Shown one piece after another: positions 617-23,333 of a stretch of DNA of 64,000 nt. Every line of letters begins with the position of its first letter. Position 1 is the stretch's first letter. The DNA comes from Candidatus Bathyarchaeota archaeon. Lineage in GTDB: Archaea; Thermoproteota; Bathyarchaeia; 40CM-2-53-6; RBG-13-38-9. The notes below the pieces were generated by a model, which saw only the letters and a program-made list of their open reading frames with translations, searched no databases and was not told where the DNA came from. The stretch spans positions 960,001 through 1,024,000 of the forward strand of contig CAWECG010000003.1 of NCBI GenBank assembly GCA_963807605.1, given 5' to 3'. The translations under genes were made by a program, and so were the position numbers.

Positions 617-1585
617 TCAACGATCTGAACTCAACTTTAGATTCACGCCCTCAACGGTAGACGGGATTTCTTTGCCGGATCCGAGGGGCTGGAAAACCTC
701 GTCAACACTCATTAAGCGAAAAGTGTTGAGGGTGGCTTGGCCTGACAGGACTTTGTATGCTCCGACGCATCGCTGAGAAACTTGCTCGATTACTATGGGG
801 GGTAGGTGAGGGGGAGGGCCGTCGCCTTGGTAACCACTTCTCATGAGAAAGTCTCTCAGAAACTCTTTGTCCAAAGAGTAGGCCTCTTGTCTCTCACCTA
901 CGCGATAGCTCTTGCTAGACCAGAGGCGGGCTGAGTCGTGTGTCGGGGGCTCGTCTATCTGCATTAGATGATCTCCTGCACGACCATATTCGAGCTTGAA
1001 GTCTGGGATAATAAGCCCTCTTCTTGAAGCTTCAGCCTTGTAGAACTCGTAGAGTCTGAAAGTAGCCTCCTCGAGCGTTCCCCATTCTTCTCTTGAGACA
1101 AAACCTTTACCCAGAGCTTCTTCTCGGGACAACGTAACGTCATGTCCCAGATCGCTTTTAGTAGTAGGTGTAAGTAAAGATTCAGGCAACTCTTCAGCCA
1201 TCCGCAGTCCAGCAGGAAGAGTCACTCCCCCGAGGGTACGTTCTCCCTTCTCATAGGCCCGCCAGGCTGAACCATAAAGATACCCTCGAGCAATCCACTC
1301 AACGTCAATTCTCTCAGTCTTTACGACTTTGATGCTTCTATCATCAACCTTCTCAACGAAATGATTCGGAAATACTGATTTGGTCTTGTCAAACCAGTAC
1401 GCAGATAACTGGTTCAAAGCCCACCCTTTAAGAGGGATGCCATTCGGGAGGACTACGTCGAAGGCTGAAACCCTATCGGTCGAGACAATCAGCAGAAAGT
1501 CCGTCAGATCATAGACATCCCGCACCTTTCCTCGCCTAAAGACTGGCAGCGGATAGTTGGATTGCAGTAAAATTTCGTGATTCAT
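617..1585 (-). CDS. purC: SAICAR synthase
   Basis: RGKVRDVY, STDRVSAFD, RGYLYGS, PTTK, DFKLEYG, SLDKEFLRD motifs. Confidence 0.95.
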   Translation of the reverse strand: MNHEILLQSNYPLPVFRRGKVRDVYDLTDFLLIVSTDRVSAFDVVLPNGIPLKGWALNQLSAYWFDKTKSVFPNHFVEKVDDRSIKVVKTERIDVEWIARGYLYGSAWRAYEKGERTLGGVTLPAGLRMAEELPESLLTPTTKSDLGHDVTLSREEALGKGFVSREEWGTLEEATFRLYEFYKAEASRRGLIIPDFKLEYGRAGDHLMQIDEPPTHDSARLWSSKSYRVGERQEAYSLDKEFLRDFLMRSGYQGDGPPPHLPPIVIEQVSQRCVGAYKVLSGQATLNTFRLMSVDEVFQPLGSGKEIPSTVEGVNLKLSSDR

Positions 1586-1761
1586 TCACCCTCACTCCAG
1601 CAACGATTCCTGAGGTAGATCTTTGATTCTAGTCAACAAAGCCACTGTTGCAGATTTGAAATAGAACAGTCCAATACTTGTGCCTTTCTTGGATGAACGC
1701 ATCTTGTTCCCCTACGCCAAGGGACGGAAATATTATCTTGACGTAGATCGCTGTTGTGGAC

Positions 1762-2245
1762 TCATAAGGTAGAAGAAACGCTCAGCATTGATCGTGGGAT
1801 CCTGAAACCACTCGGCCTTGTCAAAGCAATAAAGATAACGGGTTGCCGCCTTCCATTGTTTGGAGACCTTATGACATGAGTAGGAGTTGCGTCTAGTCCC
1901 ACACCCAAAGAGCATGTCAGGATTTCTCTATCCCAAACAGTAGATTTGATCTTTTTAGCCAACTCTCCGGCTTTTACAAAACTTCGAACCCTTTGACTTG
2001 CATCTAAGAAAGCTTCATCGATTCCTGTCTGCTCGAACCTGTCAGCGAAGGCTCTAAGTACTGCCATTACCCTCCCTGAGAACGGCTCGTATAGCGCGAA
2101 GTCTACTGGCAGATATACTCCCCGAGGACAAAGCTTCCAAGCACGGGATATTGGCATCGTAAAACAAATACCAAATTTTCTAGCTTCGTAATTGGGGCAC
2201 TGACAACACCGCGCCCGAGGCCCTGTTTGGGATCAGCTCGCGCGC
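1762..2245 (-). pseudogene. dbh: Y-family DNA polymerase IV (DinB/Dbh) fragment, frameshifted and truncated at both ends
   Basis: ADPKQGLGRGVVS (frameshift) NYEARKFGI..MPISRAWKLCP...EQTGIDEAFLD...TCSLGVG, then similarity is lost; the N-terminal VDMD motif is absent. Confidence 0.85.
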
Positions 2246-2267
2246 TCCGAAGTGCTCCAAGGCGGAC

Positions 2268-3461
2268 TCATTTGTCGTTGAGTATCTCTATTCCAGGGAG
2301 AATCTTTCCTCCGACGTATTCTAGCGAGGCACCCCCCCCAGTTGAGATATGGCTGACTTCAGATTCTGTTACTCCAGCCTTCCCCAAAGCCGAGACTGAA
2401 TCGCCGCCCCCAACAACTGTTGTCGCGCCACGAAAATGTGCAAGAGCGATTGCCAATGCCACATCGGCAGTTCCGTGGGAGAACTCTTTAAGCTCGAATA
2501 GACCCATTGGGCCGTTCCAGAACACTGTTCCATGCGTAGAAGATATTACGGACGTGTAGGTCCCGGAAGTTAGAGGGCCTATGTCGAACCCCATCATGTC
2601 AGGCGGAATGTCTCCGCGCACATATCGAAATTGGTTGGCAGAATCGATATTCGGCGCGACTAAATGATCTTCTGGGAGAAGAATCTTATCTTCTCTGTTA
2701 AGAATTTCGCTAGCCCATGGTACAAAATCATTCTCGATTGGAGATTCTCCTATCGATATACCCTTTGACGCTAGGAAGGTATATGCTATGCAGCCTCCAA
2801 TTAATACTTTGTTTGCTTTTTCGATCAACCTTCTCAATGCATCTATCTTGTCGTGGATCTTTGCTCCTCCGATTACTAATGTGAACGGTTGGGTGGGTTC
2901 ATCTCTTATCTTGGTAAGGTATTCTAGTTCCTTCTGTAGTTGAAGGCCTGCGAGCCTGTACTGTAGCAGGCTGGGCGCTCCATATGTTGATGCATGCTTT
3001 CTATGGGAGACGCTGAATGCTTCGTTGACATATATTTCTGCTAGGGATGCGAGTGAACGGGAGAATCCATCATCATCTTTCTCTTCTTCGGAATGGAAGC
3101 GTAAGTTCTCTAGAACGAGAATATCTCCATCAGTCAGATTCTTGATTGAATTCTCGACATCTTTGCCGATACATTCACTGATCCATCTAATCTTTCTGTT
3201 TGGGAGGAGCTTCTGGAGGCATTCGGCTACGGGTTTCAGTGACATCGTCGGGTCAGGTTTTCCTTCGGGTCTCCCCAGGTGAGAAGCGACGATGAGCCTT
3301 GCGCCTCTGGTAGAGAGATAGTTCAATGTTGGTGTGGAGCTTCTAATTCTGAAGTCATCATCAACTTGACCTTCTCTTAGAGGGACGTTATAGTCTACCC
3401 TAACTAGAGTTCTCTTCCCTTTGTAGAATTCGTTCGGAAGATCGGCTATGGAAGCCTTCAT
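2268..3461 (-). CDS. pgk: Phosphoglycerate kinase
   Basis: RVDYNVP, SHLGRP, LENLRF, GGAKIHDKI, WNGPMGLFE, HISTGGGASLE. Confidence 0.97.
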   Translation of the reverse strand: MKASIADLPNEFYKGKRTLVRVDYNVPLREGQVDDDFRIRSSTPTLNYLSTRGARLIVASHLGRPEGKPDPTMSLKPVAECLQKLLPNRKIRWISECIGKDVENSIKNLTDGDILVLENLRFHSEEEKDDDGFSRSLASLAEIYVNEAFSVSHRKHASTYGAPSLLQYRLAGLQLQKELEYLTKIRDEPTQPFTLVIGGAKIHDKIDALRRLIEKANKVLIGGCIAYTFLASKGISIGESPIENDFVPWASEILNREDKILLPEDHLVAPNIDSANQFRYVRGDIPPDMMGFDIGPLTSGTYTSVISSTHGTVFWNGPMGLFELKEFSHGTADVALAIALAHFRGATTVVGGGDSVSALGKAGVTESEVSHISTGGGASLEYVGGKILPGIEILNDK

Positions 3462-3541
3462 CTCGTTTCAACACGCCCAATTGAACATTTCGCCCAAATT
3501 AGGCCTTTGACAGTCTTCAAAATGCGATTCCAGTTGTCCAG

Positions 3542-4852
3542 TCATCCCGTACTGTTCACTTTCTGCTTAAGTTGAGAAACAAGAATGGGCATCAGCTCAG
3601 ATCCTTTGGGAAGGACTCCCAGACTTCCTTTCGCGCACTCTCTCTCACAGAACTTCCTCAGCCCATCTCCTAAAATGTTTCTTCCAGCAATAAGAAGGGG
3701 GACAGGATCATCTGAGTGAGATTTCATCTCGCATGGAGTTGAATGATCAGCTGACACGCAAGTCAGAATCTCTTCAGGATCCACCGCACCGCGCAATTTG
3801 CCAAAGAAGTCCGCATCGATAATCTCTATTGATCTTTTCTTTAATTCAAAATTGCCATCATGAGCCGGTTCGTCAGGACCCTTGATGTGAATGTAGAATG
3901 CATCATGATACTGAAGATTTTCAAGTAGCTTACTGGCCTTGAGTTGGCTGTCGCGACTCAGGTTGTCTGATGGTGGAGGGATCTCTATGGTTGCCATGCC
4001 AGCTAGGGTGGCTATGCCTTTCTCAACAGGCATCTCGACTATTGATGCAAAGTCAATGTTGTATTTCTTGTTGATATCGAAGAGTGTTGGTAGCCTATTG
4101 CCTGCGTCTCGCGTTAATATTGCGTTGGCCTTCAATTTACCAGATGACTCTCTCTTGATGTTTATGGGATGATACTCTAGGAGCGTGCGGGTCTTCTCTA
4201 CGAACTCGTTGACCAGTTTTGCGGAAATATTAGCCTCATGAGTCGCGTCCATCGGTTTACATTCTTCTAGAGAAGTCTCCGCTCCGAGCTTGGACTTTGC
4301 TACGCCAAACCCCCCGATATGTGTGTAGGCAGCATCTGTATTCGTGATATTCCCTGACAAGGAGCCATTGCTCTTCCTGATGACGAGAACTGCCCGGTAA
4401 CCGACGGTGCTCTTGAACTCGAACCTAGAAGGTACCGTTTCAAGCCTTATCTCTGAATTAATTGATTTGCTTAGCTCGGTTGCTTCAGAGGTTGTCAGAT
4501 TTCTTCCAACGCGGCGGTCTAGGATCTTATTGGTACTATCTACCGTTGCAAAGTTGCATCTGAGGGCGAGATCCCCATCATTCACAATCATGTTTGCGCC
4601 AAAAGCCTCCAAAGGCCCCCTTCCCGTGTAGAATTTTGCGGGATCATATCCCAATATTGAAACGACTGCAACATCACTCTCAGGAGCTATTCCCTTTCCG
4701 ACTGTGTACATCAGCCCGAGTTTTCCCTTTGGGACTAATTTGTCGAGGTTAGGGGTTTCTGCAGCTTCAAGTGGAGTTTTATTTCCTAGTTCTGAAATTG
4801 GGCGATCGCCCAAGCCATCGATGACCACATAGAGAAGTTTTCCTTCCTTCAG
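3542..4852 (-). CDS. apgM: 2,3-BPG-independent phosphoglycerate mutase (archaeal ApgM)
   Basis: VIDGLGDRP, KTPLEAAETPNLD, HIKGPDEPAHDG, SADHSTP, HSDDPVP; frame extends to a probable CTG start at 4852. Confidence 0.95.
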   Translation of the reverse strand: MKEGKLLYVVIDGLGDRPISELGNKTPLEAAETPNLDKLVPKGKLGLMYTVGKGIAPESDVAVVSILGYDPAKFYTGRGPLEAFGANMIVNDGDLALRCNFATVDSTNKILDRRVGRNLTTSEATELSKSINSEIRLETVPSRFEFKSTVGYRAVLVIRKSNGSLSGNITNTDAAYTHIGGFGVAKSKLGAETSLEECKPMDATHEANISAKLVNEFVEKTRTLLEYHPINIKRESSGKLKANAILTRDAGNRLPTLFDINKKYNIDFASIVEMPVEKGIATLAGMATIEIPPPSDNLSRDSQLKASKLLENLQYHDAFYIHIKGPDEPAHDGNFELKKRSIEIIDADFFGKLRGAVDPEEILTCVSADHSTPCEMKSHSDDPVPLLIAGRNILGDGLRKFCERECAKGSLGVLPKGSELMPILVSQLKQKVNSTG

Positions 4853-4907
4853 GAGATTTCACCCACTGCAAGTCTTGACTGATGCATTTGTCGGCTTCCT
4901 CCAATAA

Positions 4908-6980
4908 CTATATCGTTGGAGTGAATCGCCTTAGAAAGAGAGCGTTTGTAACAACGGTCACTGAGCTGAAAGCCATGGCTGCAGCGGCGAACATCGGGTT
5001 GAGTAGTATCTTGAAAGTAGGGTATAAAACACCTGCAGCAACTGGAATGAATGCAACATTGTAAAAAAATGCCCAAAAGAGATTCTGCTTAATCTTCCCG
5101 ACTGTTCGCTTGCTCAGTTGAATCGAAGCTACAACGTCACGTAAATCGTCTCTTATCAGAACTATGCCCCCGGTCTCCAAAGCTACGTCCGTCCCACTTC
5201 CAATTGCTATTCCGATATCTAATTGGGCTAGGGCCGGTGCGTCGTTGATTCCATCTCCGACCATCCCAACAATCTTTCCTTCCGATTGAAGTCTCTTGAT
5301 GACGTCAGCCTTCTCGGCAGGTAGAACTTCAGCCACAACATTATCTATACCGGCCTGTTTGGCTATGGCACGTGCCGTACGTTCGTTGTCGCCTGTCAGC
5401 ATTGTTACTTCTATGTCCATGCTGCGGAGTTCTTTGATGGCTACTTTTGAACTCTCCTTCAAAGTGTCGGCGACTGCTATGAGGCCTGCAAGCTTTCCGT
5501 CTATAGATGTAATCATAACCGTCTTGCCTTCATGCTCGAGTGTTATTATGTCGTCCTCGACTTGAGCTATTGAAATTCCGTTATCTGCCATAAGTCTGCG
5601 GTTGCCAAGCAACACTTTCTTTGCATCGCATGCGGCTGCTACTCCCTTTCCTGGGAGTGCTTCAAAGGATTCTAGGCGGGGTATGGTCAATCCTTTGCTT
5701 TTAGCGGCGTTTACGATAGCTTCTCCTAGGGTATGCTCAGAGCCGCTTTCAGCAGAAGCTGAGAACTCCAGAACCTGACTCTTATCGTATGGAGCCAATG
5801 CGAATATATCGGTGACTGATGGTTCTCCTTTGGTGAGAGTTCCAGTCTTGTCGAAGACTATGGCATTGAGTTTGTGAGCTTTCTCTAGGTATTCGCCTCC
5901 TTTGATCAGTATACCATTCTCAGCACCCTTGCCTGTGCCGACCATTATGGCTGCGGGAGTCGCGATCCCTAGGGCGCACGGGCAGGCGATTATTAGCACA
6001 GCTATGAAGACGCCTAGCGCGAAGACTAATCCTAAACCAAGCATATTCCATATGATGAATGATATTGTTGCGATGGCTATTACTGCAGGGACGAAATATG
6101 AGGATACAAGGTCGGCGAGTCTTTGAATTGGCGCTCTGGCCACCTGGGCTTCCTCGACGAGCTTAATGATCTGTGATAGCATGGTGTCGGAGCCAACCTT
6201 GATTGCCTTGAATTTGAGGAGACCTGCCTTGTTGATTGTTGCTCCTATGACCTGGTCTCCGACCTGTTTCTCAACGGGGATGCTCTCACCAGTGATCATC
6301 TTTTCGTCGACAGTGGAGTAGCCCTCAACTACTTCCCCGTCAACTGGTATTCTTTCTCCAGGACGAACAACAATAATATCGCCGACGTTGACTTGCTCTA
6401 CCGGAATCGCTACCTCGGATCCTTCCCTGATTACCGTAGCGTCTTGAGGTTGAAGTCCCATAAGCTTTCTAATTGCCTCAGATGCCTTGCCTTTAGCGAG
6501 GTCCTCAAACAATTTACCAAGAAGTATCAATGCTATTATCACGGCAGCCGTATCGAAGTAGACTGTCCCCTCAGGAAAGGCTGAAGGATTGAAAGTGACG
6601 ATCGTACTATAGCTCCAAGCAGCTGAAGTGCCCAATGCGATCAAAGTATCCATGTTAGCACTTCTGCTCTGAATAGCATTCCAAGTTCCTTTGTAGTATC
6701 GCCAGCCCGCGATGAACTGTACAGGTGTGGCTAGAAGGAAGAGCCAGATGTTGTTCGGAAGATAAGGAAGTATTGGTAAGTACGTAAAGACGAGTGTTGG
6801 GATACCAAGTATGATGCTAAAGGCGACGAGGATCTTCATATTTCTCAGCTCAACTTCAGGTCTGAGAAATGTTTTGAGGCAAGTCTCGCTGCAGAAATAG
6901 TAAGTTATTCCGCGAACTGTAGCTTTGAGCTTACTAGTCTTCTCATCGACATACATTCCACAAATTGGATCCTTAGCCAA
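4908..6980 (-). CDS. copA: Cu(+)-translocating P1B-type ATPase with N-terminal YHS/TRASH metal-binding domain
   Basis: [43 protein letters not shown] and MAFSS motifs. Confidence 0.95.
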
Positions 6981-7043
6981 TGGGATTGACCTCTAGTTTT
7001 CGAATTTGGTGAGGGGCGTAGAAAAGGATGGGATTTTCCATTC

Positions 7044-7187
7044 TCAAGTGAGGTACTTGGAGGTGTTCTTATCGAAGTCCTCCTTGCAGCCTAGGGAACA
7101 GAAATAATAGGTCTTGTCTTTGTAGATGCTCTTGAATTTTGCAGATTTCTCATCAACATTCATTCCGCAGATGGGGTCTTTGGCCAA
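7044..7187 (-). CDS. Stand-alone YHS/TRASH metallochaperone (47 aa, not in ORF track)
   Basis: Hand translation from TTG gives [47 protein letters not shown]; GAGGTGA SD upstream; lies directly upstream of copA. Confidence 0.9.
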   Translation of the reverse strand: MAKDPICGMNVDEKSAKFKSIYKDKTYYFCSLGCKEDFDKNTSKYLT

Positions 7188-7208
7188 GCATTTCACCTCA
7201 TATGTCTG

Positions 7209-7220
7209 ATGCATATGCAT
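7209..7220. promoter_or_regulatory. Palindrome ATGCATATGCAT upstream of the YHS-copA unit, candidate operator
   Basis: Perfect 12-bp palindrome about 20 bp upstream of the YHS start. Confidence 0.3.
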
Positions 7221-7225
7221 TTGTC

Positions 7226-7405
7226 TTATAGATTTAGTTCGGTCCTAGCTTTTACAACTTGAAGTATGTCACTATGAGTCACTATTCCCAGTAATTTTCC
7301 GCTGGCTACAACCAGGGCTTGCCCAACATCATACCTTGACATCTTCATCATGACTTCAACGGCGTCTTGGTCCGGCCTAACTGTGACTATCTTTTCAGCG
7401 CGCTT
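7226..7405 (-). pseudogene. CBS-domain fragment lacking its N-terminal part (C-terminal relic)
   Basis: KIVTVRPDQDAVEVMMKMSRYDVGQALVVASGKLLGIVTHSDILQVVK*; no start codon upstream of the domain. Confidence 0.7.
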
Positions 7406-7463
7406 TCTTGGTGTTGAAAGTAGATGGTTATGTTGAGCCCACGAGTACTGGCGAAGAGTAGCT

Positions 7464-7697
7464 TCAGGCGGAGGCTGGGGACAAGACTACCTCAAAGTCT
7501 TCTCCTCTGTATATTACCTGCATCAAGACATAGAGGAAATCCTCTCTGCTTGGTAGTAGTAATCCCTTAGCAAGGAGTCCTTCATAGACTTGATGAGGCT
7601 TGACTTCAGCGTTTGAGACAGGGACTATTACTGGCGCGTTCACTTCATCCTCGATGTAGATTTCGCTGTTCCGCCTTACTACCCGAAGTCGTGTCAT
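7464..7697 (-). CDS. Hypothetical protein (77 aa)
   Basis: ATG start with GAGGAG SD upstream and protein-like composition. Confidence 0.55.
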   Translation of the reverse strand: MTRLRVVRRNSEIYIEDEVNAPVIVPVSNAEVKPHQVYEGLLAKGLLLPSREDFLYVLMQVIYRGEDFEVVLSPASA

Positions 7698-7899
7698 CTT
7701 GTTTCTTGTTTACTCTCCTCGTCTGGTCGAGTATAGTATGATGGGGTTACCTATCAACTTTTTTTGATCTAGATCTCTGTTGCAAAAAGCAGAATGCTTA
7801 GTTACTGAGATCTTTGAAGGATTGATCTAGTCTGTTCCGAGTCAATGTTATATTTAGAGCTAGAGTGCTCGGGTTATCAGTACCAGACTTCTGTTTAGA

Positions 7900-8337
7900 T
7901 TATTTTCTCCTTGAGTAAAGTCCGATTAATTCTGCTTTAGCGAGAGTGTGTTTTTCGACCGTCTTAAGGAAGTTCTTTTGATCAACACCTTCGAGATGGT
8001 TGATGTCGAGTGCGTAGATGGTGAATATGTAACGGTGCGTTCCTGATGGCGGGCAGGGACCGCCATAATTCTTATTTCCAAAGTCATTTTGAATTTGCTG
8101 GGCGTCCTTGGGCATTTTGCCTTGATCGATGCCTTTCGTGTCCTTAGGAATGTCACAGATAAGCCAATGAACGAAGTCTCCTCCGGGAGCATCAGGATCA
8201 ACCACGGTTAGGGCGTAACTCTTGGTGCCACTAGGTGAATCTTCCCACGATAGTCTAGGAGAGATGTCAGCGCCATCGCAAGTGAATTTGGAGGGGATCG
8301 TACTGTTGTGCTGAAAGTCGCTGCTTGTCAACTTCAC
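7900..8337 (-). CDS. YbhB/YbcL (PEBP) family protein
   Basis: TCDGADISP, DPDAPGGDFVHW, YGGPCPPSGTHRY. Confidence 0.95.
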   Translation of the reverse strand: MKLTSSDFQHNSTIPSKFTCDGADISPRLSWEDSPSGTKSYALTVVDPDAPGGDFVHWLICDIPKDTKGIDQGKMPKDAQQIQNDFGNKNYGGPCPPSGTHRYIFTIYALDINHLEGVDQKNFLKTVEKHTLAKAELIGLYSRRK

Positions 8338-8360
8338 GGGCTCGTCACCTTCCAGTTGAA

Positions 8361-11300
8361 TTATTCTCTTTTTCTTCTTTTATTCATTACCATTGTTAAC
8401 GTGTAGGCAACCCCGATTCCTATGATTGTTAAGAAGGGGAATTGTGTGATGTTGAATTCAGGAATTGGAATTCCACTTTGGACTAGGTAGAAGTTGTATG
8501 TGGCAAGTCCTCCGTCGGGAACCATGATAGTGGAGCTTTGTGAGGTTAGACCAGGGTGGTCAACTATGATACTATAGACTCCATGAGGCAGATATGTTTC
8601 ATACAGACCGTCCCAAGTGTAACTGATGTGGGTGTAATTGTCTTGATAGGTTACGGAGGCCCAGCTTACACTTCTCAGATCCCTTCGGATATTGTAGAAT
8701 GCGACCGTTCCATGAACTTGTCCTCTCATATGAAGTGAGAATATGGCTGATGAGCCCCCTCCCAAGCTTGCGGGGGGGAGTCTAATCGTCTCTCTCAGCT
8801 CGAATGGACCAGGGTGATTATACGGGAGGATAGTTGTCATGTTCCATGTTTGCAACTCACCTTGAAGCATAGCAAATGGAGGAGGATAGAATTCTGTAGG
8901 CCTATACCAGTTAGCCATCTCCACCGTCACGTACCATCCTCCAGAATACATTCCTGCTAGCGGAGTAGGGGAACTACCCCAAATTCCGCTGTCAGCTGAG
9001 TAGAGGGTAAGCAGAAATCGTGCTTGCGCTTCCGCAGTTGGATCTATATATCTCAGGAGACCCGCCAGACCCTTATATTCAACCTGCTGGGTTCCCGCCG
9101 GTATGGCTACTGAACCGCTGGCATTAATCACTTTTTTTCCGTCAGTAAAGAATCCAAGATCCGAGGAGGGTTGGACGGCCCCTATATCAAGTGATGTCGT
9201 GGCCGCAGCTACCAAGGCGTCTCTGTCGTCGTAGACGCTTATACGCATGGTCATGTTGTAAGGTAGGGTGGTTGGGAGGTCTTCTTTTTCGAAGTCTATC
9301 GCGAAATTGAATTCTACACCTTTGATTAGTCGGATGGGTGCATCTGCGATCTGACCCATACTTACGTCGACAATGATTTTACCGAGGTCACCCAGAGTGG
9401 TGACGCCCTCTTGGACGTAGCCATAAGTCCATCCAGTGATTGCGTATCGACCAGGATAGATGGCAACGGCAGATCTAAGGTTCGGAGTCCTGTAAAATGT
9501 GGGTTGATACAAGAATCCTATTTTTTCAGCTTGAAAGAAGACATTGGTGGAGAAATACTGTTGAGAGGGGAATGACGGTAATGACGGAAGATCTGGACCA
9601 TAGCTTTCTAGGATAGTCGAGCCGTTCGTGATTAGCATGCTTGCTGATGGACCGAATACGATTCTCCAATTCGGCCAAGGTATAACTGAGAAAGCCGATT
9701 CTGTCGTGGGCAGGGTCCATACATGTCTGATGGAGTCCCAAAAGCTAATAGAATCAACGAAAGAGTCTGAGGCTACGTCGTATACCAGAACTGATGCTGT
9801 TGTTCCGTTATAACTCCATAGGCGTCGAATAGGAGGGTTCTCCCAGTTGATGGAGTAGACTGTGGTGTTTATTCCCCCGCCTCTGAACATGTGCGCACTG
9901 ACCGATGAGTTGCTGCACATCGAGATCGAGAAGCCGACAGCTCTGTCGAGATCAATCAATTCATTACCTGGAGCTAATGCTTGGATGTAACCTCGCATGT
10001 ACATGTAAAGCGAGTATGAGCTTGGATACATTCCATAATCTCGTAATCCACGATAGCGGAAGAGAGAATACTTGATTCCAGCCCTAGGATCTGGGGGTGG
10101 TATGACCCCTGCCATGCCAAGCCCGTTAAGGGTCAAGCTCGCAGAGGCGGAGAGGGCTGATACAAAAGTGAAATTGAAGGCTGACAATACCCCTTGAGAA
10201 TCTAGAGCCTCAACCACGAGGAATCTTCCAGGATCAGGTCCCCCAATTGGTTTCTCCTGCATACCTCCAATCGCATCATGAAAATGGACTGTGAGGTTTA
10301 GGCTTCCTGAAAGCCACAGATCCATCTGGAAGGCGACACCTAGAGTCTGCCCTTGGGTTAACGTGAAGTAGTAATCTTTGAAGTTCGAACCTGAAATGTC
10401 TGTCTGAATATAACCGTTCACATATGCGCGAACGAAGTAAGTGCCGGGTCCTAGACCGTCGATCCATGTGGCAAATACTTGAGGAACCATACCGCTGAAC
10501 CTGTAAGGCGCGCCGAAATAGCGTTGAAAGCCAAACTGGAAGCGAAATGAAGATTTGCCGGATCCTAGGCCGGTTACAGGGTCGAAGCTTCCGGTGGGGC
10601 TGACCCACCAAGTCTGGGCAGGACCGACTCCGTTGTAGAGTCCGAAGGGATCCTTGAAGGGCGGAAGGGCAGTAGAGGGGTAATAGCTGATCGGGCCCTC
10701 CCAGGGGAAGGCGACGAGCTTCGGAGAGTTCGGGGGGAGCAATATGCCGGAGCTGAATATGGTGTTTCCCGTAACATATGATGTGTAAGGAGCATGTGTG
10801 AGATTGAGTGGCGAGTAACTGACGACATTATCCTCGACATAACTGTCGCTATCGTATATGACTACGCTGATGGGGAGATCGCCTTTCCAGGGTGTAATAC
10901 CTAAGCAACTCTTTGAGTCAATCTCGCCCAGTATCTCTGGTCCTGGCACAAGATAGAGATCAAGGCCGAGAGACTGTCCTCTGTAGACTATCACCTTCTC
11001 AGTTGTTATCAGTTCGGGCAGACCTGCTGCGCTTGCATAGATGCTGTAGATACCCGGAGCCACACCCTCTATTTCGAAATGTCCTTTTGCGGAGGCATTG
11101 AAGTATCCCCTGGCCTCCACAACCCTTCCCGTTGGAACACCTGTAACAGGATCAGAGGCGACGCCGATTGCTCTAACCCTTCCTGGAAGATCAATCGGCT
11201 TGCCGTAAAGCTCTAAATTCGATTCTTCCCCATATCTAACAGTTCCATAAATAATAGCGGGGTCCAGTTCCCCCTTGACAAGGAGAACAGGCCAGTTCTC

Positions 11301-21387: not shown

Positions 21388-21540
21388 AGACAGTCCGGTT
21401 TCAAGCGGATGCACCAACGGATACACACATCAAAAAGAATCAGTTCAAATTTGTCCGCTCGCACCACCTGACCCACACACAAATAACCTCCTCCGGTGGT
21501 TCAAATTATGGTGCTCTGATCAGCTAGGGCACACATACCT

Positions 21541-21730
21541 TGTTCAAATGTTCATTCAGATAGGGACTAAAACAGGCACTGTTTTTGGAGTATTGACTAC
21601 TAAATCTTCAATACTGCCCAATAGTAATAGCATATTTTAACTGGTTCTGTAGCAACTACTGCTTTTGAACATTTGAACAGAACTGTGAACATTTGAACAA
21701 AGCAGTGAACGTTTGAACGTTAGTCTGAAC
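21541..21730. repeat. Iteron-like TGAAC array (20-bp period) with an inverted copy
   Basis: TGAAC at 21666/21674, 21686/21694, 21706/21714 and 21726; inverted TGTTCAAATGTTCA at 21541-21554. Confidence 0.85.
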
Positions 21731-21926
21731 GGAGTCAACCATAGCTGGTGAGCACCACCACCAAGATAGAATGGCTCGCTTCGCTCACTGCGAGAAAAAA
21801 CTGGAGCGATCTCGCGCCAAATCGTATAGATAATGAACATGCTAGAGGATCGATGTGATTCAATTGAGCAATCCCTAATAATTGCCTACTCACACCTAAG
21901 CTAAGAAAGACTTTGGAGTATCGAAG

Positions 21927-22424
21927 ATGAGCGGCGTTGAGTCTCGTTCTGTAGAGCTTTTTCAAACAGTCCTAGTGCCGGTTTTGCTGATCAACGGTGT
22001 CGGCCTGTTCCTTCTGGTATTGCAGACCAGATACGGAAGAATCGTTGACAGAATGAGAACACTAACCCATGAACGACGCAATATCGTCAAGAGCAAGATC
22101 TTGAGTCGTTCGGAGATCGAGAAGACCTGGGATCAGAACCGCTTGTCTGACATAGATGAACAGATGAAAATACTTGTCAGGCGCGGTAAACTGTTGAAGG
22201 ACGCTTTGAAGTACATGTTCATAGCCATATTCGCGTCTATAATAGCGCCTTTCCTCTTGCTTATCGAAATGCTAACCACGGTAAAGCTGACATTAGTTTT
22301 TTTGTTTCTGCTATTATTTGTGATGATCATGCTGTTTGTCGCAGGCATAAATGGAATAAGAGAAGTGACCAGTTCCTACACTGCAGTCATGTTTGACATT
22401 GACACGCATGCGCTTGAAGGATAG
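21927..22424 (+). CDS. DUF2721-like membrane protein
   Basis: PVLLINGVGLFLLVLQTRYGRIVDRMR...LVRRGKLLKDAL, followed by two TM helices. Confidence 0.8.
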   Translation: MSGVESRSVELFQTVLVPVLLINGVGLFLLVLQTRYGRIVDRMRTLTHERRNIVKSKILSRSEIEKTWDQNRLSDIDEQMKILVRRGKLLKDALKYMFIAIFASIIAPFLLLIEMLTTVKLTLVFLFLLLFVMIMLFVAGINGIREVTSSYTAVMFDIDTHALEG

Positions 22425-22685
22425 AATAGAAGGCGAGCGCACTCCTACCTGCCTTACCTCGCACCACCATCACAGACGATTCTACGTAGGGCGCACTAAG
22501 ATTGGGCAACAACACGCGCTCTCATATGTAGTATGCAGGTCTTGCATACTATAGTTCGCTGTTTTATATACTGTTTAAAGCCTGCAGGTATCGTTTACAA
22601 ACTTCTATTAGACTTACTTCTTTTTTACGAATAATATTATTTCTTCTTCTATTATGCAGAAAATAGGTAATTTTTCTATTAGAAA

Positions 22686-22819
22686 TTTACACCTTTACTT
22701 CTTATCTGGTGTCTGTAGCCTATGCTTGTTTACTCGTTTACTTCTTTACCTCTTTTTTCTACCTTGGTTTTCCTTTCCACTATTAGCACTTACCGTTTAG
22801 ATGCAAATTACACCGTTAC
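22686..22819. repeat. Iteron-like TTTAC array in an AT-rich tract
   Basis: TTTAC at 22686/22694 and 22729/22737/22745; TTAC at 22808/22816; 8-bp spacing throughout. Confidence 0.65.
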
Positions 22820-22864
22820 CTCTGCAAGCGTAGCGAGCAGTCATCATTATGGTGGTGGTGAGTG

Positions 22865-23136
22865 TATCCTTTGGTGAGAGGGATATTACATAGTAGCTGT
22901 TTTCTGGGGTCAATATGGGAGTGTCTAGGCTAGTACAAGGGCTAATGGGTTAGGGATATGGGGATAGTCGGGGAGAATGATATTCTCCGTACTACTATCC
23001 TCCCCCTACTTTGTACTACTCTAGTATTCAACATAGGTAATTGGAATAGTACATGTCAAGACTACTCAAGTAGTACTATTCCCTGGGCTATCCCCCATTA
23101 TCCGTCTGCACAAATGACATTATCCTTCGTTATCCC
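22865..23136. repeat. GGGATA/TATCC inverted array with nested stem-loops
   Basis: GGGATA at 22880, 22953, 22961; TATCC at 22865, 22996, 23089, 23099, 23121, 23131; stems GGAGAAT/ATTCTCC, TAGTACAA/TTGTACTA, GGAATAGTAC/GTACTATTCC. Confidence 0.65.
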
Positions 23137-23333
23137 AAGTTCTCTGGTACATTGTCCTTTCTTAGGTGACTGTATGGACCGTGGAATTGAGGAAGTTCTA
23201 CGAGAATTACTTAGCTTGGCAGGAAAGAAGCCCTATGCAATGATGACTTGCGCTCACCCGATAAGGCACGCACAAAAAAATAGTTTACTCTAAGTGCGCT
23301 CGCGCTTCAGAGGGTTGAATTTTTGCAAGTAGA

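Follow-up and report, generated by a model that had tools for sequence, protein, structure and literature searches.

What kind of DNA is a stretch of about 1.9 kb that holds three different arrays of short repeats and a single gene? The stretch in question (positions 21388 to 23333) belongs to a 64-kb window, the whole piece of DNA that was analyzed (C3:960001-1024000), in a nearly closed Bathyarchaeia genome of 2.65 Mb (G000) that consists of five contigs (C1 to C5). A reading made from the letters of the window alone, here called the sequence-only reading, had described arrays built on the words TGAAC, TTTAC and GGGATA/TATCC (arrays 1 to 3) and had proposed that they are origins of several mobile replicons collected at one locus, with debris of repeated integration as a fallback. 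Sequence comparisons suggest instead that the stretch is probably a patchwork of mobile-DNA relics at Cas1-type landing sites, and neither a set of origins nor a single functional unit. Since the arrays turn out to be internal features of unrelated dispersed modules amid insertion scars, the locus appears to be mobile-element debris. The fallback came close to the truth, the modules being parted by insertion junction motifs of the Cas1 type.

The stretch comprises two intergenic gaps (21388-21926 and 22425-23333; ~1.45 kb of non-coding DNA) around one gene for a DUF2721 membrane protein, which bears out the statement that it is non-coding apart from a single membrane gene. The array words were judged against expectation and against 100 shuffles of the 64-kb window. 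The word of array 1, TGAACNNNTGAAC, occurs four times in the window against 0.22 expected, a count that none of the 100 shuffles reached. Tandem Repeats Finder returned a 20-bp unit in 2.7 copies at 21666-21718, and the three 20-bp units recognized here are accompanied by an exact inverted copy of 14-15 nt (Table 1). The word of array 2, TTTACNNNTTTAC, occurs four times against 0.06 expected, three of the four at 22686-22749. The TGAAC and TTTAC arrays are thus real and far above chance, whereas the word of array 3, GGATANNNGGATA, has a single occurrence (22954; 0.11 expected) that 11 of the 100 shuffles equaled. Enrichment over shuffled sequence, on which the sequence-only reading depended, therefore holds for arrays 1 and 2 and fails for array 3. 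The same division applies to the 8-bp pairing of core words that had been described for all three: it recurs repeatedly in arrays 1 and 2, but array 3 has just one such pair, and its TATCC words on the other strand are spaced at 10 and 22 bp, their source being long imperfect hairpins. Because the GGGATA/TATCC array has only one 8-bp pair, a spacing common to the arrays is best taken as coincidence. No sequence is shared among the three arrays, nor among the modules B, D and G in which they lie.

Each array sits in its own dispersed repeat module, something that is invisible from the letters of the window alone. The modules were delimited by searching the stretch against its own genome, and the copies were compared in our own alignments, in which they are 73-93% identical and have sharp borders. 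About 1.0 of the ~1.45 kb of non-coding DNA consists of repeat modules or junction motifs. Three copies each were found of module B (the others at C5:63323-63499, 85% identical, and C3:784941-785121, 73%), module D (C3:190133-190278 on the minus strand and C3:163971-164151 on the plus strand, in gaps between unrelated genes) and module G (C4:220530-220927, 88%, and C3:647160-647515, 93%, with 1-nt indels between copies), and a further module, E (22761-22860), has an 83% identical copy at C1:418871-418966. The genes beside the other module copies are unrelated to one another (NUDIX, sugar nucleotidyltransferases, glutamate dehydrogenase with a tRNA, convergent unknowns, a major facilitator superfamily transporter and MsrA). 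The TTTAC triplet of D is absent from one of its other copies and decayed in the second. G was also considered as the 5' part of a larger gene, and this was rejected: its reading frame has 39-53 codons in all three copies and no longer protein shares its start. The DUF2721 gene, D and E lie between the two inverted ends of a larger unit, gamma (Table 1); these ends are supported by inverted repeats I12, I16, I17 and I19 and by local alignment, and an element beside a core at C1:418856 has the right end of gamma as its own left end. Several modules are bordered by runs of GCGCGCGC (beside the D and G copies at C3:190.1k, 164.15k and 647.1k, and at ~3100 of the metagenome contig L036), and another run, at C3:1083292-1083316, lies 14 nt beyond a real tRNA gene; such runs may represent an additional type of element tip.

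The borders of the modules carry a recurring junction motif. In it, a fake tRNA 3' end (GGTTCAAAT-N5-TGCT) is followed by a 14-nt core close to CTCACCAGCTAAGG in sequence and then by a tip of simple repeats (CACACA, CGACGA or CACCACC). The stretch contains five such junctions, all exactly at module borders, and two of them (21442-21473 and 21498-21529) have a fake T-arm with tRNA-like spacing. The second matches the profile of the motif at 21495-21536 (E 9.8e-10), and the fifth is also present in the C4 copy of G, while the homology of the C3:647k copy stops exactly there. The repeat family to which the sequence left of B belongs, X, was defined by a single-sequence nhmmer search, alignment and then a profile search of the genome; its unit is ~46 nt long (consensus TCTAACGGTTCAAATTnnGATGCTCTCACCAGCTAaGGCACACACA) and has 82 genomic copies. 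X mimics a tRNA 3' end in that GGTTCAAAT + 5 + 7 + 1 + CCA reproduces the spacing of the real tRNAs of this genome. In a genome collection of ~185,000 species the X pattern was confined to metagenome-assembled genomes of Bathyarchaeia, with X-like matches in relatives of the same family. When up to two mismatches in 14 nt were allowed, the core was found 110 times in the genome against ~17 expected by our own calculation; GTTCAAAT stands no more than 24 nt upstream of 31 of these cores, a known tip comes after 58 of them and a reverse tip before 38.

Two other identities of X were considered. X only mimics a tRNA and is neither a real one nor a fragment: it overlaps none of the 22 tRNA matches, and the TGCTCTCACCA end is not found in any tRNA. 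An integron attC site was dropped as well: the TCTAAC start is present, no GTTAGA partner was seen by eye in the aligned copies and nothing specific was found in the literature. X units lie within ~700 bp of two of the five tyrosine-integrase genes (C2:55923-57440 and C1:288226-289007), one of which is flanked by X on both sides and has a TAA stop in its frame. The 11-mer CTCGCACCACC over the degenerate core of junction 1 (21458-21468) recurs 1000 bp downstream (22458-22468), just past the DUF2721 stop; the second occurrence may represent the distant half of an ancient duplication, or may be due to chance, as pairs this long are common in 2 kb.

A candidate for the enzyme involved is encoded outside the window, by a 9.0-kb element at C3:796434-805413 (C3:796420-805427 with its duplications; 921-9928 of locus L042). 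This element encodes at C3:803.6k a stand-alone Cas1 of 402 amino acids (PF01867, E 2.7e-49), and the stretch itself has none. It is flanked on both sides by an identical 14-mer, CTTTAGCTGGTGAG (14/14), has 12-nt inverted tips, CGACGACGACGA, and has a reverse fake T-arm directly beside one of its duplications. Its cargo is defense-like (SIR2_2, ATPase_2 with a helix-turn-helix [HTH] and DUF5677), and the CACACACA tip of another element lies directly at its left side. The flanking 14-mers grade from this perfect match through the two around G at C4 (13/14) to those of gamma (7/14) and B (2 to 7/14), the last two counted by eye. The proposed link of the stretch to Cas1 rests on this one intact element together with the statistics of the motif.

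Family 2 casposons, such as AciBoo-C1 of Aciduliprofundum boonei and those of Methanosarcina mazei, are described in two reports as elements with a stand-alone Cas1 and inverted ends that insert beside a sequence like a tRNA 3' end with a 14-nt duplication, and their casposase as recognizing an upstream "leader" plus the target, few terminal bases of the element being important (PMC4046053, PMC6614799). The element at C3:796434-805413 has these features, and the same motif grammar is seen at the five junctions of the stretch. Unlike family 2 casposons, however, the landing sites here are ~80-110 fake tRNA ends across the chromosome rather than a real tRNA gene, the Cas1 element has inverted tips of just 12 nt and no family-B polymerase, and the units in the stretch are without Cas1 and have decayed or mismatched duplications.

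Table 1. Coordinates of junctions, modules and gene in the studied stretch (numbering of the 64-kb window)
Feature	Position	Strand	Description
Junction 1	21442..21473	+	T-arm AGTTCAAATTTGTCCGCT 21442-21459, degenerate core CGCACCACCTGACC 21460-21473, tip CACACACAAA from 21474; member of the X family
Junction 2	21498..21540	+	T-arm GGTTCAAATTATGGTGCT 21498-21515, core CTGATCAGCTAGGG 21516-21529, tip CACACATACCT 21530-21540 running into B
Module B	21536..21735	+	Holds the TGAAC array: inverted box TGTTCAAATGTTCA (21541-21554), 111-bp spacer of ~36% GC, three 20-bp units TGAACATTTGAACA-N6 (21666-21725), extra TGAAC at 21726-21730
Junction 3	21739..21763	-	Reverse core CCATAGCTGGTGAG 21739-21752 (1 mismatch to consensus), tip CACCACCACCA 21753-21763, which is the left end of gamma
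Unit gamma	21753..22860		1,108 bp; inverted ends of ~40 nt (CACCACCACCA ... GCTCGCTxCGCT); carries the DUF2721 gene, D and E
DUF2721 membrane protein gene	21927..22424	+	165 amino acids; Pfam PF11026, E 1.4e-18; sole gene of the stretch; inside unit gamma
Module D	22578..22760	+	Holds the TTTAC array: ~30% GC, pyrimidine-rich; TTTAC words 22594-22745; period-8 microrepeat 22725-22755
Module E	22761..22880	-	Right terminal ~100 nt of gamma; ends in reverse tip TGGTGGTGGTG (22850-22860)
Junction 4	22850..22880	-	Reverse tip TGGTGGTGGTG 22850-22860, short-variant reverse core TCCTTTGGTGAGAG 22867-22880
Module G	22895..23252 (to 23293 with junction)	+	Holds the GGGATA/TATCC words: two imperfect hairpins at ~22930-23025 and 23043-23085; 39-codon mini-ORF (open reading frame) from 23174
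Junction 5	23253..23293	+	Core CTCACCCGATAAGG 23253-23266, then tip CACGCACAAAAAAATAGTTTACTCTAA (CACGCAC...)

We hypothesize that a casposase-type Cas1 would take the fake T-arm as its leader and cut the target with a stagger of 14 nt. Inserted elements would carry a fresh landing site just inside their left end, newcomers would land within earlier elements, and deletions and recombination between similar ends would leave stumps behind. Unit gamma would be a Cas1-less cargo unit bearing the DUF2721 gene, and D and G would be further low-copy non-coding bodies in decay. No unique order of nesting follows from the stretch, given its long and short core variants and its decayed duplications. If this scheme is right, the locus would be an example of a Cas1-linked insertion system with about a hundred fake tRNA ends as landing pads, a system that leaves nested gene-carrying units and stumps, and it would bear on the target choice of casposons and on how arrays like those of CRISPR (clustered regularly interspaced short palindromic repeats) could arise.

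The origin of one such stump can be followed further. A metagenome scan run with the pattern of the B array recovered five chromosomal-looking contigs of related populations that carry B at 86-90% identity with three units. Among the copies the unit number is 2 to 3, and the TGAAC/GTTCA columns are 95-98% conserved against 68-87% elsewhere in the module. The inverted ends of B match at 14/14 (TGTTCAAATGTTCA against TGAACATTTGAACA); TGAACATTTGAAC occurs 8 times in the genome and TGAAC[AG]TTTGAAC 10 times, in agreement with a count by eye of the boxes in the three B copies. The metagenome contigs Ga0315291_10012703 and Ga0315274_10052055 (L035 and L036) share a segment of at least 3.1 kb at 95% identity (L035:2598-5713 with L036:3098-1), to the left of which their DNA differs (NUDIX in one, a KaiC-like ATPase in the other). 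B lies ~75 nt inside the left border of the shared segment, and its last TGAAC box ends 3 nt short of the ATG of a gene for a 425-amino-acid protein (L035:2878-4155) that combines an HTH-like segment at the N terminus with a long coiled coil. This gene forms a cassette (L035:2878-5117, L036:594-2848) with genes for an unknown protein of 190-195 amino acids and a SWIM zinc-finger protein of 125-131 amino acids. Searches with the 425-amino-acid protein against Pfam, PHROGs, NCBIfam and PDB sequences gave coiled-coil noise only and no family, and a search of 5.8 billion proteins returned just three close orphan clusters of homologues, with homologues at 85-88%.

In G000 the cassette appears at three stages of reduction. 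The C5 copy retains B and the first 80 codons of the 425-amino-acid gene; the C3:784685-785121 copy retains B and ~100 nt of the 5' region of the cassette gene and faces a real tRNA gene, ~170 bp from its 3' end; the window copy is the 200-bp core of B alone. The 80-codon stump is all that the genome has of the gene, the complete form being missing. By these alignments, the 200 bp of module B in the window appear to be a remnant of the left end of a mobile cassette at least 3.1 kb long. The bipartite boxes GTTCAAATGTTCA, one inverted and three or four direct, are predicted protein-binding sites, which in the intact cassette we infer to be either the operator of the HTH/coiled-coil gene or sites for binding the element end; at the window copy they are probably orphaned and inert. 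What is new at this locus is module B, a conserved bipartite-box array ahead of an orphan HTH/coiled-coil gene and a tractable candidate for a protein-DNA pair. The 8-mer GTTCAAAT is common to the TGAAC boxes and to the fake T-arm of the Cas1 landing sites, and therefore B could be a multi-copy leader mimic. It is conceivable, if doubtful, that B is a platform that binds the casposase or the HTH protein of the cassette repeatedly and so recruits the enzyme to the ends or soaks it up. Were this true, leader mimic and self-carried landing sites together would form a natural intermediate between transposons, integron-like cassette stacks and CRISPR leader-repeat arrays.

Several observations weigh against an assembly of the stretch by Cas1-type insertion. 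No orthologous empty site was found, the same-genus relative having just a 26%-identical paralogue of the ABC (ATP-binding cassette) permease; DUF2721 orthologues of relatives (~56% identity) occur only in different contexts, with gaps of ~40-260 bp to the neighboring ORFs, and afford no empty-site comparison. None of the 10 ORFs of the Cas1 element was found to encode a family-B polymerase, and the element is therefore not a casposon in the strict sense. The 14-mers that flank gamma, matching at 7/14 by eye, include one long-variant and one short-variant core; they are not duplicates, and a clean single insertion therefore does not account for gamma; the mismatch probably stems from recombination between similar ends. 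The target duplication of B (2 to 7 of 14 by eye) is unconvincing, no 14-nt core was found at the border of the L035/L036 cassette, and no junction motif was seen in the few hundred bp around the other copies of D. Alternatively, the TGAAC boxes could be so well conserved because the array is still in use at this locus, for instance at the DUF2721 promoter, 190 bp downstream.

This last point leads to an alternative in which the TGAAC words, and perhaps the TTTAC words, are working operators of the host that were spread by mobile modules and control DUF2721 or the ABC transporter. Conservation of the TGAAC words at 95-98% among otherwise diverged copies, the position of the array directly upstream of an HTH-protein gene in related strains, as expected of an operator, and the location of B 190 bp upstream of the DUF2721 start would all fit. 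Centromere-operators of the parC/ParR type are direct-repeat arrays just upstream of the gene for their binding protein, and in L035 and L036 the phased repeats similarly extend to the start of a gene whose product is HTH-like near its N terminus. Unlike parC/ParR, however, no partition ATPase was recognized in the cassette, and the putative binding protein, of 425 amino acids, has no family match. Regulation at the window copy nevertheless seems unlikely. The HTH/coiled-coil gene is reduced in this genome to the 80-codon stump, and the likely binder is therefore missing; the three B copies have neighboring genes that are unrelated and vary in orientation; B is cut off from the DUF2721 gene by the left end of gamma; and the motifs of D and G are not conserved among their copies.

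Equally improbable is a history in which the modules are generic repeats moved by a tyrosine integrase or by TnpA/TnpB, the closeness to Cas1 being coincidental. The modules do resemble miniature inverted-repeat transposable elements (MITEs) and nested transposon debris: they are non-coding, 150-400 bp long, intergenic, nested, sharply bordered and of low to moderate copy number, and B has inverted terminal boxes. They differ from MITEs in that no autonomous transposase partner was found. Terminal inverted repeats are present in B (14/14) and gamma (~40 nt) and absent in D and G; no target-site duplication was seen to flank B or D, which have no clean duplications, and no transposase bearing the ends of B was found. 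Bacterial mosaics of repetitive extragenic palindromes (REP) and bacterial interspersed mosaic elements (BIME) are targeted by the insertion sequences IS1397 and ISKpn1. X resembles them in being short and extragenic, in occurring in either orientation and in small clusters, and in serving mobile DNA as a favored landing site; it differs in being an archaeal mimic of a tRNA end and not a palindrome, and the implicated enzyme is Cas1, not a DDE or REP-associated tyrosine (RAYT) transposase. The proximity of X to two integrase genes, the ~40 tnpB copies of the genome and the lack of clean 14-nt duplications at most copies of B, D and G would suit such a history. Against it stand the perfect 14-nt duplication and inverted tips of the Cas1 element at exactly the junction motif, the tips after 58 and reverse tips before 38 of the 110 cores, and the clustering of tnpB copies at C4:480-720k, where X is rare. 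An origin from tnpB and its omega RNA was accordingly rejected: tnpB lies away from X and none adjoins B, D or G, the nearest being 1.4-1.8 kb from the C5 copy of B. The ~40 TnpB-type genes have a Cas12f-like TNB domain, and most fall within the 240 kb of C4:480000-720000.

That B, D and G are families of small transcribed, structured RNAs is very unlikely. Their several copies of 73-93% identity and the long hairpins of G and B would be expected of such families, but Rfam (at the gathering threshold and with E up to 10) and ARAGORN recognized no RNA family or tRNA in the window, and fold z-scores are near background for G and D (-0.6 and -1.8 for G). Those of B (-2.2 and -3.9) arise because its terminal inverted boxes pair with each other. 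In the alignment, read by eye, the other copies of G show disrupted hairpins and no compensatory changes, and G was on these grounds rejected as a structured RNA.

Least probable of all are orphan replication origins, that is, iterons of archaeal plasmids or viruses fired or titrated in trans: array 1 does look like an iteron origin in its arrangement (direct repeats in phase, one inverted copy and ~36% GC in the spacer), D is ~30% GC and the TGAAC words are conserved above their surroundings, but the other copies of the modules sit at unrelated places in the chromosome where there is no Rep, MCM, primase or capsid gene, 0 of the viral contigs scanned match the B or G pattern, intact B precedes an HTH/coiled-coil gene with no replication domain, the arrays share no sequence and have the 8-bp spacing in two cases only, the TTTAC and GGGATA features decay between copies, and the Orc1/Cdc6 genes lie elsewhere. 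Phased repeats with an AT-rich region are found in array 1 alone, and this arrangement is not diagnostic of an origin. No gene for Rep, MCM, a primase, Orc1/Cdc6, an integrase or Cas1 was found in or near the stretch or beside the other module copies, and Pfam scans of the flanks of the window locus, of the other two B copies and of the L035/L036 genes gave no initiator; KaiC-like ATPases nearby were generic RecA-fold matches only. Matches to Cdc6_C occur only at C3:881795 and C4:140035, ~100 kb off or on another contig, and the five integrases and the Cas1 genes of the genome are likewise elsewhere, in agreement with the earlier remark that the window holds no initiator or integrase. Neither adjacency to orc1/cdc6 nor inverted origin recognition boxes (ORB) were seen, and there were no ORB-like elements in the stretch.

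The ori1 octamer of phage P4, to which the repeats had been likened, is TGTTCACC/GGTGAACA. As in P4 ori1 and ORB origins, short direct and inverted repeats surround an AT-richer spacer, and GTGAACAT has 7 of the 8 bases of the P4 octamer; unlike in those origins, there is no cognate initiator gene here or at the other copies, and the repeats are part of a transposable module. The likeness comes down to these seven bases, with no P4 context. Neighboring primase-helicase, MCM or Rep genes, which had been proposed as a check on the arrays, are absent at the other copies, and B and G have no viral match. A decoy bank for invader initiators finds no support either, the arrays being inside mobile modules that recur. 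The outcome removes a false lead: the locus is not a bank of orphan origins, and the 8-bp spacing has no common cause.

The surroundings of the stretch are those of a chromosome. Its left-hand neighbors are genes for a DUF4064-like membrane protein, a glyoxalase and an AlaX-like protein, and an ABC-2 permease and its ATPase are encoded on the right; farther out are rubrerythrin, an aminotransferase, a RadB-like ATPase and more ordinary chromosomal genes. Elsewhere in the genome, an IscB-like RRXRR protein is repeated at C3:1149.5k and C4:566.7k. Within the stretch, a near-perfect 25-nt hairpin, GTAGTATGCAGGTCTTGCATACTAT, stands at 22529-22553, ~100 bp past the DUF2721 stop codon and in the sole part of the right-hand gap that has no other genomic copy; it may be a terminator-like element.

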